This document shows positions 1,134-36,153 of a DNA stretch of 64,000 bases, in pieces; positions within the stretch are counted from its first letter, which is position 1; each line of letters starts with the position of its first letter. Where the stretch lies: assembly GCF_003334765.1 (NCBI RefSeq), contig NZ_QOWT01000001.1. One strand, given 5' to 3'. The notes beneath the pieces are model-generated. The model saw nothing but the letters and a program-made list of their open reading frames with translations. It had not been told where the DNA came from and made no database searches. The position numbers were made by a program, and so were the translations under genes. Source of the DNA: Escherichia coli (GTDB lineage: Bacteria; Pseudomonadota; Gammaproteobacteria; Enterobacterales; Enterobacteriaceae).

Positions 1134-1943
1134 ATGTCTTTTTCCTGTCCACTTTGCCATCAGCCTCTTTCGCGTGAAAAAAACAGCTATATCTGTCCCC
1201 AGCGACATCAGTTTGATATGGCGAAAGAAGGGTATGTCAATCTGCTGCCCGTTCAGCATAAACGGTCTCGTGATCCGGGCGACAGCGCGGAAATGATGCA
1301 AGCACGCCGCGCATTCTTAGATGCCGGACATTATCAGCCGCTGCGTGATGCAATTGTCGCCCAACTGAGGGAACGGCTTGATGATAAGGCCACGGCGGTG
1401 CTGGATATTGGCTGTGGTGAAGGGTATTACACACACGCATTTGCCGATGCGTTGCCCGAAATCACCACGTTTGGTCTGGATGTTTCGAAGGTAGCGATAA
1501 AAGCGGCGGCGAAACGCTATCCGCAGGTCACTTTTTGTGTCGCTTCCAGCCACCGTTTGCCGTTTTCCGATACCAGTATGGACGCCATAATACGTATTTA
1601 CGCGCCGTGTAAAGCAGAAGAATTAGCACGAGTAGTGAAGCCCGGCGGCTGGGTCATTACTGCCACGCCGGGACCGCGACATTTGATGGAGCTGAAGGGG
1701 CTGATTTACAATGAAGTACATCTTCATGCACCTCATGCAGAACAACTGGAAGGTTTTACATTACAGCAGAGTGCGGAGTTGTGTTATCCGATGCGTCTTC
1801 GCGGTGATGAAGCCGTCGCATTATTGCAGATGACGCCGTTTGCCTGGCGTGCGAAGCCAGAAGTCTGGCAAACACTGGCAGCAAAAGAAGTGTTCGACTG
1901 CCAGACGGACTTTAATATTCACCTCTGGCAGCGTTCTTATTAA
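1134..1943 (+). CDS. rlmA: 23S rRNA m1G745 methyltransferase RlmA
   Basis: 269-aa ORF; N-terminal Zn-finger CPLCHQPL...CPQRHQF; SAM-binding motif LDIGCGEG. Confidence 0.9.
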
Positions 1944-2506
1944 CCGTGGAAGTGCGTCCAGAGGATCTGGACGCCGATGCCGATCAGCACCAGCCCGCCG
2001 AGAATTTCCGCTTTTTTCCCAATAATTGAGCCGATAAAGCGACCAACCATCATCCCTAATGTTGACATAATCAAGGTTGCACAACCAATGGCCAATGCGG
2101 TCGCGATAATGTTGACCTGCAGGAAAGCAAGACCAACACCCACAGCCATGGCATCCAGGCTGGTGGCAATCGCGGTGGTTACCAGTAGCCAGAAACCGTG
2201 TCGACGGCGCGGCTCTTCATCTTCATCATCTGCGCCACGAAAACCCTCAATAATCATTCGCCCGCCGAGGAATATCAGCAGCACAAACGCAATCCAGTGG
2301 TTCCATTCAAGGACAAACCGGCTGGCTAACATGCCCATTCCCCAGCCGATCAGCGGCGTCAGGGTTTCGACGGCACCAAAAATAAGGCCGGTTCGCAATG
2401 CTTCAGAAAATTTCGGTTTATGGAGGGTGGCACCTTTACCGATTGATGCAGCAAATGCATCCATCGACATACCAAACGCAAGAAGAACAGTAGCAGTGAT
2501 ATTCAT
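1940..2506 (-). CDS. mntP: Manganese efflux pump MntP
   Basis: Polytopic membrane ORF; start set at [12 protein letters not shown] (188 aa) inside the 206-aa track ORF; stop codon overlaps the rlmA stop. Confidence 0.85.
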
Positions 2507-8165: not shown

Positions 8166-8168
8166 GCG

Positions 8169-32617: not shown

Positions 32618-33439
32618 ATGATGCACAGGTTGAATCTCAATGGCTATGAACCCGACCGACACCATGAAGCCGCGGTCGCATTTTGTATTCACGCCGGAAC
32701 GGATGAGTTAACCAGTCCTGTACATCAGCACCGCAAAGGACAGCTGATACTGGCGCTACATGGTGCAATTACCTGTACGGTGGAAAATGCTTTGTGGATG
32801 GTGCCGCCACAATATGCGGTTTGGATACCGGGCGGGGTGGAACATAGCAATCAAGTAACAGCTAATGCTGAACTCTGTTTTCTGTTTATCGAACCCAGCG
32901 CAGTGACAATGCCGACAACATGTTGCACATTGAAAATATCGCCCTTATGCCGGGAATTAATTTTAACCCTGGCAAACAGGACGACGACTCAGCGTGCTGA
33001 GCCAATGACCCGCAGATTAATTCAGGTCCTGTTTGATGAACTCCCTCAGCAGCCACAACAACAGCTGCACCTGCCCGTTTCTTCTCATCCTAAAATCCGC
33101 ACGATGGTGGAGATGATGGCGAAAGGGCCTGTCGAGTGGGGGGCATTGGGGCAATGGGCTGGCTTTTTTGCGATGAGTGAACGCAATCTTGCCCGACTGA
33201 TAGTAAAAGAGACGGGGTTGAGTTTTCGCCAGTGGCGTCAGCAGTTACAGCTGATTATGGCGCTTCAGGGATTAGTGAAAGGCGATACTGTACAGAAAGT
33301 TGCTCATACGCTGGGGTATGATTCAACAACGGCCTTTATTACTATGTTTAAGAAAGGCCTGGGGCAAACGCCAGGCCGATATATTGCGAGATTAACTACT
33401 GTTTCCCCACAATCAGCGAAACCAGACCCGCGGCAATAA
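32618..33439 (+). CDS. yeaM: AraC-family transcriptional regulator YeaM
   Basis: 273-aa ORF with cupin-like N-terminus and C-terminal AraC HTH; divergent from yeaN. Confidence 0.88.
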
Positions 33440-33842
33440 GCGGCCCAACCGGTACGCCGCGAAACAGCGCTACGCCTAAAACAGTGCCTACCAGCAGCCC
33501 GGCGACCAGTTGCGGCTGGCTGCCCATTAACGTCACGCCGCGCCCACCCAGCCAGGAGACAATCACGCCTACTGCAATCGCCACCAGTGATTTCCAGTTC
33601 AGAAACGAGTGAATCAAGGTTGAGGGCGGTAGCGTCCCGCTGGCGATGGGGGCCATAACGCCAATCGTCAGAATGATTATCCCGATACTTAGCCCCTGTT
33701 TTTCAATCCACGGAAAAAAGGTGCTTAACGGTGTGACGCGGACAATGATTAACACCAGAATTGAAACGGCGACAGTGGTGTTATGACTGATAAAGCCCAG
33801 CGCAGCTAACCCGAGCAGGATCAGCAAAGTGACATCAAACAT
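33396..33842 (-). CDS. yeaL: DUF441 inner membrane protein YeaL
   Basis: 148-aa hydrophobic ORF; its 3' end overlaps the yeaM 3' end by 44 bp. Confidence 0.85.
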
Positions 33843-34011
33843 CGTGGTTTCCTTGCCAAAAAATAATAAGCCTGCTTACTTTACGCTTGCTGCAGGAAGG
33901 AAGTAGAAAATCTTTACGTTTTTTGCATAAAAAATCAGGCGAACTGTCATCAAACTGCCATTTGTGCACGCTAACAATAACGTGAAAACAGCTATCTCCC
34001 GGGGGCATGCT

Positions 34012-34116
34012 ATGAACGATCAAATGTTTGTCGAGACACTGATTATCACGTCATCGTTTTTTGCCATTGCTGTTGTACTGGTTTTGTCCGTTCTTCTTAT
34101 CGAACGGACCGGCTAG
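34012..34116 (+). CDS. yoaI: Small membrane protein YoaI (34 aa)
   Basis: ATG 34012 to TAG 34114-34116 translates to [34 protein letters not shown]; not in track. Confidence 0.75.
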
Positions 34117-34620
34117 TTACGCAGTGCGGCGGAAATTGACCAGTTCTGGTTGCGCAATGCGCAAATAATCCGCGGTTTTCAAAATAACGGATTTATCCAG
34201 CATGCCTGCATTGAAGGCGATTTCATCAAATCGTTCGAAGAGTAGAGGGTCGGCAACCAGTTTGAGTTTTGGATGGAAGCTGAAAGGGGGGATCGCGCCG
34301 AAGACACAGCCTGTGAGTTCATCGACTTCCGCCGGGCTGGCCAACGAAGCGCGTAATCCGCCTATATGGCTGGCGAGTTGGCTCAGATCGGCCTGTTGAT
34401 CGGCTGCGAGGATCGCCAGAACATGTTGATTTACGCCATTGCCTTTGACTTTACATACCAGTGCCTTAGCACCCTGGCCTAGAGCGGTGCCACGAATTTC
34501 TGACACCGCTTCACATTTACCTACCGCTTCATGGGTAACGACGCGGAAGTCAGCACCTTCTTGTGATAATAAAGCGATTAACCGCTGATGCGTCACGCTT
34601 CCTTTAGCCATTTCAGTCAT
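34117..34620 (-). CDS. yeaK: YbaK/ProX-type aminoacyl-tRNA deacylase domain protein YeaK
   Basis: 167-aa ORF recognised as YeaK; stop codon directly abuts the yoaI stop. Confidence 0.88.
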   Translation of the reverse strand: MTEMAKGSVTHQRLIALLSQEGADFRVVTHEAVGKCEAVSEIRGTALGQGAKALVCKVKGNGVNQHVLAILAADQQADLSQLASHIGGLRASLASPAEVDELTGCVFGAIPPFSFHPKLKLVADPLLFERFDEIAFNAGMLDKSVILKTADYLRIAQPELVNFRRTA

Positions 34621-34662
34621 TTCACGCTCCTGAGATTACAAGCAAACAACCACAGAAGGTTA

Positions 34663-36153
34663 TCATGAACGGCTGTTTTTGTTCTGCTTATTGACATATA
34701 AACGCTCATCGGAAGCTTTATACGCATCATGTAACGTATCGTTTTCTTTCATCGCGTAAATACCGGAAGAGAAGCCGATCTCTTTCTGCGGCGCGATATG
34801 TTGCAGACGTTTTTCGATACGTTCAGGCAGTTGTGCTGCAATTTGCGGCGTCGAATCGACAAGAATGATGCAGAATTCATCGCCACCGAGTCGGATGGCA
34901 TAATCACTTTTACGAATCGACTGTTTAATCGCCTGAGCTAATAACGTAATCGCTAAATCCCCCTCCTGATGACCGAGGGTGTCATTTATTTGCTTTAACT
35001 TGTCCATGTCAATAGCAATAAACATCACCGAAGAACCGGATTGCACCAGTTTCTGCAACCGCTGCTCCAGTTCAGGGGTTAAAATTTTGCGATTATACAG
35101 TCCAGTCATCGCATCACTAATATTTTCTCGCGACACATTTTGGTATAAACGGAAGTGCATCCGCACCATATTCAGCAAAATTAACGCCGTCAAAATCCAG
35201 AACAGAACGCTTTTCCACGAAGACGTGATAAAGTAAAGAATATCAATGGATAACGAGACACGAATGCCGCCCGGTAAGTCATGGACGTAACTGACATACT
35301 GGAACAGATTATCTTCGCTCTGGTTGATGATAATGTCGCGCCCCGAATCGGTATCGGTTAGCGTGACATTGAGAAAACGCCAGAGGAGAGGGCGGTCATG
35401 AGTATAAAAGATATTCCGCAGATTGTTTTTGTTAATATCCAGCAGCACAATCCCTTTTAGCTGCCCTGCGACATATACCGGCGTCAGCAAACTCATCACG
35501 TTCTGTTTAGTACGCTGATCCTGGTAAATGCTCGACAATACGGTACGCCCGGTAAATACCTTTTCAATATCTTTGCGATCGATGCCAATACTTCCTGACT
35601 GCAGGAAGGACCAGTTATTCATCGCAAAGTATTCAACATTAACCGGCTCATAAAAATAGACATAGCGGTCATTGAGATCGAGATAATAGTGAAATTTCTC
35701 TTCGGCCATCCCAAGACCTGAACCGTAATCATCCTGGTGGCGGTTGCCTTCCACTGCCTGATCAAAAGCGGGTAATAGTGCTGCAGCTTCCACAATTGTG
35801 TCGCAGTCAGTGGATGCGGTTTGTAGTGTGCCGCGTAAGCCCGGGTATTTATGGGCAGTCAGGTTTAAGCCATGGGTGTTATTGGCAGACTCAAAAGCCT
35901 CGCAGATGGCGCGCCGCTGTTCTGGCGACACTTCCGACTGCTCAGCAGCGAGAGCGCGCATCACATGCGCGGCAATACTCTGATTCTGATACTTATCATA
36001 AAGAAAGGAGGAGTCTGCTTTCTGCACGATATAGCGCAGATAGGCACTCATTGCTCTGTCGCTGGCGACAAGTTCAAAAATAAGGAAGGAAGATGTCAGC
36101 ACAATGACACTTGCGGCGATAAAATGCCGGAGCATTCTATGGTGCAATTTCAT
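34663..36153 (-). CDS. dgcJ: Diguanylate cyclase DgcJ (YeaJ), membrane sensor with GGDEF domain
   Basis: Track ORF 34663-36333 (556 aa); start set at MKLHHRMLRHF (496 aa) per remembered K-12 length; intact GGDEF motif RLGGDEFCI. Confidence 0.82.
   Translation of the reverse strand: MKLHHRMLRHFIAASVIVLTSSFLIFELVASDRAMSAYLRYIVQKADSSFLYDKYQNQSIAAHVMRALAAEQSEVSPEQRRAICEAFESANNTHGLNLTAHKYPGLRGTLQTASTDCDTIVEAAALLPAFDQAVEGNRHQDDYGSGLGMAEEKFHYYLDLNDRYVYFYEPVNVEYFAMNNWSFLQSGSIGIDRKDIEKVFTGRTVLSSIYQDQRTKQNVMSLLTPVYVAGQLKGIVLLDINKNNLRNIFYTHDRPLLWRFLNVTLTDTDSGRDIIINQSEDNLFQYVSYVHDLPGGIRVSLSIDILYFITSSWKSVLFWILTALILLNMVRMHFRLYQNVSRENISDAMTGLYNRKILTPELEQRLQKLVQSGSSVMFIAIDMDKLKQINDTLGHQEGDLAITLLAQAIKQSIRKSDYAIRLGGDEFCIILVDSTPQIAAQLPERIEKRLQHIAPQKEIGFSSGIYAMKENDTLHDAYKASDERLYVNKQNKNSRS

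Follow-up and report, generated by a model that had tools for sequence, protein, structure and literature searches.

Convergent yoaI and yeaK of Escherichia coli: adjacent stop codons, no canonical terminator and overlapping transcription

The stop codons of yoaI and yeaK, two convergent genes of Escherichia coli, lie directly side by side, which raises the question of where the two transcripts end and whether their meeting has consequences for either gene. The window analyzed here (the whole stretch of DNA examined, 64 kb) is the reverse complement of the MG1655 sequence, and window positions w convert to MG1655 positions g as g = 1908194 − w. A preliminary description had placed a 34-codon hydrophobic ORF, named yoaI, immediately against the stop codon of yeaK (TAG followed by TTA, gap 0). 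Sequence and translation confirm this arrangement (Table 1), with the yeaK product ending in NFRRTA before a TAA that reads as TTA on the + strand at 34117–34119.

Both gene names are also correct. In both MG1655 and E. coli BY63, RefSeq assigns the names yoaI and yeaK to the same two coding sequences, with the products “small membrane protein YoaI” and, for YeaK, “mischarged aminoacyl-tRNA deacylase.” Over residues 1–34 of 34, YoaI scores 79.8 bits (cut-off 45) against the NCBIfam equivalog NF041475 (“small membrane protein YoaI”), and its residues T9–I30 form a run of 22 consecutive uncharged, mostly hydrophobic positions, as expected of a single transmembrane segment. YeaK contains a Pfam PF04073 tRNA_edit domain (i-E 4.3e-27, residues 30–154, model positions 1–122 of 123) and does not reach the cut-offs set for the YbaK or ProRS equivalogs, consistent with membership of a separate subfamily. 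PMC7603204 cites the yeaK product as ProXp-ST1, reported to be active in vitro in the deacylation of Ser-tRNAAla. A longer yoaI reading frame of 50 aa, starting at an in-frame GTG at 33964, was rejected in view of the end-to-end match of residues 1–34 to the family model and of published Ribo-RET data placing initiation at the annotated start (bioRxiv 10.1101/2024.09.13.612970). The 851 nt tested around the junction are identical, with no difference, to those of K-12-type genomes (yoaI, b1788; yeaK, b1787), and the same stretch is found in 5412 of 5426 complete E. coli genomes.

Table 1. Features of the yoaI–yeaK locus. Window positions count from the first nucleotide of the window.
Feature	Window position	Strand	MG1655 position (strand)	Description
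yeaL	33396-33842	-		DUF441 membrane protein; co-oriented with yeaK; from annotation
Pho box of yoaI promoter	33945-33962	+		18-mer TGTCATCAAACTGCCATT; identical motif in PhoB ChIP-seq
Rho-termination region, peak	33969	- (yeaK-sense)	1874225 (+)	labelled 'antisense yoaI' (PMC7815308, Supplementary file 2)
Likely yoaI -10 element	33972-33978	+		TAACAAT; read from sequence
Likely yoaI Shine-Dalgarno	34001-34005	+		GGGGG; read from sequence
yoaI CDS	34012-34116	+	1874078-1874182 (-)	34 aa, single-pass small membrane protein; TAG stop at 34114-34116
Stem-loop over both stops	34069-34125	+		core 8-bp stem: GTCCGTTC (34086-34093) with GAACGGAC (34102-34109)
Junction hexamer	34114-34119			TAGTTA; both stop codons adjacent, intergenic distance 0
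yeaK CDS	34117-34620	-	1873574-1874077 (+)	167 aa, YbaK-type trans-editing deacylase (ProXp-ST1)
dgcJ (yeaJ)	34663-36153	-		upstream of yeaK, same direction

The minus strand carries dgcJ, yeaK and yeaL in this order, and yoaI occupies the plus strand between yeaK and yeaL. The space from yeaK to yeaL measures 274 nt and houses yoaI; its segment 33843–34011 is the yoaI promoter region, divergently common to yeaL. A promoter belonging to yeaL itself may also be present, which would be a point against the explanation favored below.

Tight tail-to-tail packing is common in this part of the chromosome. According to the MG1655 annotation, the window holds 10 convergent pairs of coding sequences, and four have gaps of 3 nt or less: yeaK–yoaI (0 nt), yeaL–nimR (−44 nt), pdeD–yoaE (3 nt), and mntP–rlmA (−4 nt). 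The remaining pairs are spaced by 21 nt (yeaO–yoaF), 47 nt (yeaD–yeaE), 53 nt (yeaX–rnd), 58 nt (yoaJ–yeaQ), 92 nt (pncA–ydjE), and 119 nt (yoaC–yoaH). The zero gap is inherited and no accident, because it is present in 11 of 11 aligned Escherichia sequences (in E. albertii the hexamer is TAATTA), yet small gaps of this kind are common among its neighbors.

The depth of this inheritance was assessed in 80 enterobacterial yeaK loci, in which yoaI was located by tblastn. The gene was present in 41 loci and stood tail to tail with yeaK, at −4 to +30 nt, in 39 of these; in the other two, a gene for a TonB-dependent copper receptor lies between yoaI and yeaK. The gap is −4 nt in eight loci (Salmonella arizonae/diarizonae, Trabulsiella, Yokenella, and others), 0 nt in seven (six Escherichia lineages and Cedecea), +1 to +9 nt in eight (the Citrobacter koseri/amalonaticus group and others), and +11 to +30 nt in 16 (mostly Enterobacter, Lelliottia, and Kosakonia). 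tblastn detected no yoaI in 39 of the 80 loci, including those of the Citrobacter freundii group, Klebsiella, Raoultella, and Kluyvera. As the gap drifts, the receptor gene intervenes twice and yoaI is missing from nearly half of the loci, neither gene requires the abutment. Nearly all 80 loci have yeaK and yeaL as co-oriented neighbors, and the spacer between them is about 260–335 nt long with yoaI (with the exception of locus L041, 1,191 nt) and about 68–330 nt long without it, most loci of the latter kind having less than 160 nt. Given this difference in length, yoaI and its promoter behave as an insert on the opposite strand of the yeaK–yeaL spacer. The tail-to-tail layout is thus ancient yet imprecise. 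The C-terminal residues of YoaI and YeaK vary across loci while the exact gap drifts between genera, and together these observations argue against selection on a precise stop-to-stop geometry.

The same observations open the way to a purely neutral account, in which a small gene settled in a short spacer and its transcripts overlap those of yeaK since there is nothing to halt them, with no meaningful change in the expression of either gene. The drift of the gap, the variable C-termini of both proteins, and the loss of yoaI in many genera that keep yeaK–yeaL intact all favor such compaction, whereas the persistence of tail-to-tail proximity in 39 of 41 loci across many genera speaks against it. 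The expression data that bear on this account are taken up below.

Canonical termination signals are absent from the junction. Two scans for intrinsic terminators, one of them a relaxed search of both strands for a hairpin plus T-tail, returned no site there. On the yoaI strand, the first terminator-like hairpin with a T-rich tail (CGTTTTTC) occurs at 34785–34807, within dgcJ. On the yeaK strand the relaxed scan yielded just weak candidates, at 33992–33957 and 33975–33934, close to the published Rho peak (Table 1). An Rfam scan of 33300–34900 in E-value mode found no family at the junction, its sole match being a sub-threshold JUMPstart inside yeaL (E 0.14). A search for the C-over-G bias of rut-like sequences identified no clear C-rich, G-poor tract past either stop codon, the earliest C-over-G stretch on the yoaI strand starting at approximately 34400–34520.

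What the junction does contain is a stem-loop spanning both stops, with a lower stem in which yoaI codons pair with the two stop codons and the last codons of yeaK. The predicted folding energy is −25.8 kcal/mol on the + strand (z −5.62, matched by 0 of 200 shuffles) and −17 kcal/mol on the − strand (z −3.29). Its core is kept in five of five E. coli strains and in E. albertii although the surrounding third codon positions are polymorphic, with only 1769 of 5426 genomes sharing an exact 28-nt word with the K-12 60-mer. At the junctions of E. whittamii, Escherichia sp. E1V33, Salmonella, Citrobacter koseri, Trabulsiella, and most Enterobacter, z is close to 0, and no compensatory changes were found in the alignments compared. 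The stem-loop is therefore lineage-specific, strong in E. coli and E. albertii alone, and its interpretation as a conserved RNA element was rejected. It resembles bidirectional intrinsic terminators in having a strong hairpin able to form on both strands. Unlike in those terminators, the T run of the + strand precedes the stem, so that on the − strand the stem is followed by an A run. The tails of the stem are GCGGCGGA (+ strand) and AAAACCAG (− strand), neither of them a U tract, and the scans gave no site; assignment as a bidirectional intrinsic terminator was therefore not retained.

A stem of this strength could still set the 3′ ends of one or both RNAs in E. coli, by blocking 3′-exonucleases or by terminating transcription despite the missing U tract; the mature transcripts would then share only about 50 nt, and long antisense RNA would not build up. 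The folding scores on the two strands and the invariant core in the five E. coli strains and E. albertii fit this proposal. Trimming of Rho-terminated transcripts back to stable stem-loops is, moreover, reportedly common. On the other hand, the stem lies within the translated part of the yoaI mRNA, so that ribosomes would open it, and the structure vanishes in other Escherichia species and genera with no sign of compensatory change. The curated Term-seq tables, which cover three growth conditions, contain no discrete 3′ end in MG1655 1873800–1874399 and hence none at the junction, and the Rho peak reported for the yeaK strand falls some 100 nt further along than the stem-loop (PMC7815308). With yoaI switched off in those media, the lack of a Term-seq end is to be expected. 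Ends defined by the hairpin are considered unlikely.

Published transcriptome data show that the two transcripts do overlap. In the ExcludonFinder catalog (NAR 2025, PMC12288877), which calls a pair when transcript boundaries defined by RNA-seq overlap in at least 50% of 58 MG1655 transcriptomes, yeaK–yoaI is one of 165 convergent excludons of MG1655; the neighboring pairs yeaL–nimR and yeaO–yoaF are on the same list. The SMRT-Cappable-seq supplements make no mention of yoaI or yeaK. The genome-wide Rho map (Adams et al., eLife 2021, PMC7815308) reports a Rho-termination region on the yeaK-sense strand, with 73 reads upstream and 36 downstream in untreated cells, and 120 and 166, respectively, in the presence of bicyclomycin (BCM) (Rho score 2.8, p 1e-5). 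Measured along the yeaK strand, its peak at 33969 comes 148 nt after the yeaK stop, 43 nt after the yoaI start codon, and ahead of yeaL; the coordinate is approximate, given the 800-nt windows and few reads behind it. Judging by this position, transcription on the yeaK strand appears to traverse all of yoaI before being stopped by Rho. The preliminary description had expected the transcripts to overlap at their 3′ ends. The excludon list and the Rho region together support the overlap itself, and its restriction to the 3′ ends does not stand, as the Rho peak falls beyond all of yoaI.

In terminator-less tail-to-tail packing, yoaI–yeaK resembles yeaL–nimR, mntP–rlmA, and pdeD–yoaE. Two of these, yeaL–nimR and pdeD–yoaE, are on the ExcludonFinder list as well (PMC12288877), and the locus is an ordinary case of such convergent packing in E. 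coli. It differs from these pairs in the size of yoaI, which at 105 nt is short enough that read-through from yeaK spans the entire gene, including its start site, and more than a 3′ portion.

Transcription continuing from yeaK over yoaI might be taken to indicate a non-contiguous operon, in which yeaK and yeaL are co-transcribed across antisense yoaI, and yoaI lies nested within a dgcJ–yeaK–yeaL transcript with which it is reciprocally regulated. This arrangement is suggested by the common orientation of yeaK and yeaL throughout the Enterobacteriaceae, with a spacer down to 68 nt where yoaI is missing, and by the effect of bicyclomycin, which increases the reads beyond the Rho site from 36 to 166. 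However, in untreated cells the Rho-dependent termination region separates yeaK from yeaL (PMC7815308), the locus is absent from the three non-contiguous operons that ExcludonFinder lists for MG1655 (PMC12288877), and yeaL RNA lies about 10-fold below yeaK RNA in the PhoB data set described below (PMC10294691). Such an operon is therefore judged very unlikely.

The promoter of yoaI places it under phosphate control. The sequence TGTCATCAAACTGCCATT is tabulated as the PhoB ChIP-seq motif for yoaI/yeaL (PMC10294691, Table 1), the same table gives yoaI RNA as 12,266 in wild type and 28 in ΔphoB, and occupancy of yoaI by RNA polymerase in RNAP ChIP depends on PhoB (PMC10294691). With a Pho box, PhoB binding, and PhoB-dependent RNA, yoaI is a PhoB-activated gene of the Pho regulon. 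Translation of yoaI, for which the preliminary description proposed tagging as a check, is documented in the literature: an initiation peak is seen in Ribo-RET, rising about 12-fold at low Mg2+, and SPA-tagged YoaI is found in membrane fractions by western blot (bioRxiv 10.1101/2024.09.13.612970). The same study reports that YoaI binds EnvZ and stimulates EnvZ–OmpR signaling.

At low Mg2+, YoaI increases in both Ribo-RET and western blots, while yoaI RNA and promoter activity are unchanged (bioRxiv 10.1101/2024.09.13.612970). A post-transcriptional switch could be built from the yeaK 3′ UTR, lying antisense to the yoaI ribosome-binding site and raising YoaI under these conditions; the constant yoaI RNA would suit it, as would the coverage of the yoaI start region by yeaK-strand transcription (PMC7815308). 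This scheme is weakened by low read counts on the yeaK strand (PMC7815308). It is also at odds with the strain in which the Mg2+ dependence was seen, a chromosomal yoaI-SPA fusion (GSO317) whose tag sits exactly at the yoaI/yeaK junction. SPA tagging also places a resistance cassette at the tag site, and a cassette at the junction should uncouple yoaI from yeaK read-through. The switch is the least probable of the readings considered. Like the non-contiguous operon and the hairpin-set ends, it is less likely than either transcriptional overlap with local interference or neutral compaction.

The preliminary description raised the possibility of mutual antisense effects and proposed, as a check, to see if switching on yoaI changes the level of yeaK mRNA. 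A gene-level answer can be read from published RNA-seq of wild type and ΔphoB cells in low phosphate (PMC10294691, Table S1; two replicates each, directional ScriptSeq libraries). yoaI gave 11755 and 12778 in wild type and 32 and 23 in ΔphoB (log2 +8.8, adjusted p 7e-210), and yeaK gave 389 and 413 versus 709 and 655 (log2 −0.8, adjusted p 0.0115). Of the flanking genes, yeaJ (dgcJ) was at 210 and 176 versus 158 and 143 (log2 +0.4, adjusted p 0.49) and yeaL at 54 and 17 versus 58 and 76 (log2 −0.9, adjusted p 0.28). Wild type thus combines an excess of yoaI of about 400-fold with a deficit of yeaK of about 1.7-fold; the yeaK change is less than 2-fold, with an adjusted p above the authors’ cut-off of 0.01, and dgcJ is not lower. 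A decrease in yeaK that spares dgcJ is the pattern predicted by local interference; loss of PhoB could instead act indirectly, because the ΔphoB comparison shifts many genes in that way.

Neutral compaction treats the 1.7-fold change as just such an indirect effect of phoB, and the failure of yeaK to pass the authors’ thresholds (PMC10294691) counts in its favor. Against it, yeaK falls while dgcJ, upstream and co-directional, does not, as a local effect would have it. The neutral account falls somewhat short of even odds and is nearly as likely as interference.

The explanation preferred here, with a probability of roughly 0.55, is that yoaI and yeaK are a terminator-less convergent pair with overlapping transcription units, in which transcription of yoaI lowers yeaK modestly and asymmetrically. 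The zero spacing leaves no space for a terminator between the genes, and the scans found none; in consequence, transcription would read through the junction in both directions, and the units overlap. Transcription from dgcJ/yeaK would run on antisense to the whole of yoaI until Rho stops it near the yoaI promoter and before yeaL, while transcription from the yoaI promoter would enter yeaK from its 3′ end, antisense to it. The overlapping units constitute what is called a convergent “excludon” in the sense of the catalog. On activation of yoaI by PhoB, head-on polymerase traffic, an RNA duplex, or both may reduce yeaK mRNA by the 1.7-fold seen. In phosphate-replete cells, the weak read-through from yeaK may help to silence yoaI. 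In regulatory terms, the overlap amounts at most to a mild, asymmetric reduction of yeaK when phosphate is low.

Both genes, the translation and function of YoaI, its control by PhoB, and the transcript overlap were in databases or papers beforehand, as was the gene-level read-out of yeaK under yoaI induction. The present analysis adds that the overlap spans all of yoaI, that the junction has no canonical terminator, that the tail-to-tail layout is ancient but imprecise, and that both stops are spanned by a lineage-specific stem-loop.

The excludon concept comes from Listeria, and yeaK–yoaI shares with it the tail-to-tail placement on opposite strands (gap 0) and, in published data, overlapping transcripts. 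That yoaI and yeaK change in opposite directions in the comparison with ΔphoB fits the idea. In classic excludons, by contrast, the expression of one gene strongly excludes that of the other and RNase III often processes the RNAs, whereas the possible reciprocal effect measured here is about 1.7-fold. A fully functional PhoB-controlled excludon, in which phosphate starvation lowers YeaK through head-on transcription of yoaI, read-through from yeaK silences yoaI, and the stem-loop tunes RNA persistence, is regarded as unlikely, rather more so than ends set by the hairpin.

Whatever its regulatory weight, the layout matters for genetic work on these genes, as the chromosomal yoaI-SPA fusion (GSO317) necessarily alters the sequence just past the yeaK stop, and any clean yoaI deletion would do likewise. 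If the overlap is regulatory, a stress-induced gene for a small protein would act in cis on a gene of translation fidelity, and deletions or tags of yoaI would have polar consequences for yeaK, whose 3′ end is rewritten by any insertion at the yoaI stop. Should the functional excludon prove true, the quality control of translation would be tied to the Pho regulon.

The junction between the convergent genes yoaI and yeaK is spanned by a stem-loop (window 34069-34125) that takes in both stop codons and whose stability is unusual for its composition (z -5.6). The core of this element is invariant among E. coli strains, though synonymous polymorphism occurs nearby; in sister Escherichia species, the stem-loop is not kept. 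A longer, 50-aa yoaI ORF (window 33964-34116), which would begin at a GTG lying in frame 16 codons before the annotated ATG, was considered and rejected, the 34-aa form being favored by the NCBIfam YoaI model (NF041475) and by published Ribo-RET evidence (bioRxiv 10.1101/2024.09.13.612970).

On the yeaK-sense (-) strand, a hairpin at window 33957-33992 (GCTGTTTTCACGTTATTGTTAGCGTGCACAAATGGC, -12.1 kcal/mol) coincides with a published Rho-score peak at window 33969 (PMC7815308), and a T6 run (33930-33935) can be read downstream of it. The same bases on the + strand constitute the yoaI -10 and start region. A second Rho-termination region is reported on this - strand inside dgcJ, the gene upstream of yeaK, at window 35943 (MG1655 1872252; Rho score 2.66, p 1.7e-5; PMC7815308). 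The presence of this internal region suggests that a large share of dgcJ transcription never reaches yeaK and that yeaK may have a promoter of its own.

Close tail-to-tail packing is common in the window (see table). The coding regions of nimR and yeaL overlap by 44 nt (window 33396-33439), and this pair is also among the excludons published for MG1655 (PMC12288877). The only terminator-like hairpin of yeaL, located at 33377-33356 on the - strand and formed by GGCCTGGCGTTTGCCCCAGGCC followed by TTTCTTAAAC, lies within nimR.

Coordinates of tightly packed convergent genes in the window and of the gene intervening between yoaI and yeaK in locus L030
Feature	Position	Strand	Arrangement or family	Source
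nimR	window 32618-33439	+	convergent with yeaL	
yeaL	window 33396-33842	-	convergent with nimR	
mntP/rlmA	window 1941-1944		convergent, 4-nt overlap	MG1655 1906251-1906254
pdeD/yoaE	window 8166-8168		convergent, 3-nt gap	MG1655 1900026-1900028
Receptor gene	L030:3018-5060	yoaI strand	TIGR01778	

Two enterobacterial loci, L030 and L028 (Enterobacter asburiae INSAq146; Huaxiibacter chinensis), carry a TonB-dependent copper receptor gene (680 aa; TIGR01778, 811 bits) between yoaI and yeaK, in the same orientation as yoaI; yoaI is therefore upstream of the receptor gene in these lineages and does not abut yeaK. E. coli 675SK2 (NZ_CP027701.1) has an IS1A insertion in the yoaI-yeaK-dgcJ stretch, and the match there is broken into two pieces; its yeaK annotation reads no more than 'YbaK/prolyl-tRNA synthetase associated domain-containing protein'.

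Within the 5' end of yoaI, a sigma-70-like match (TCGACA, 16-nt spacer, TAGCAT; window 34007-34034) faces yeaL on the - strand. No other match of this kind occurs in the region, and with 1.5 expected from shuffled sequences this one is not above chance. Were this match a real promoter, the 5' UTR of yeaL would overlap the 5' end of yoaI.
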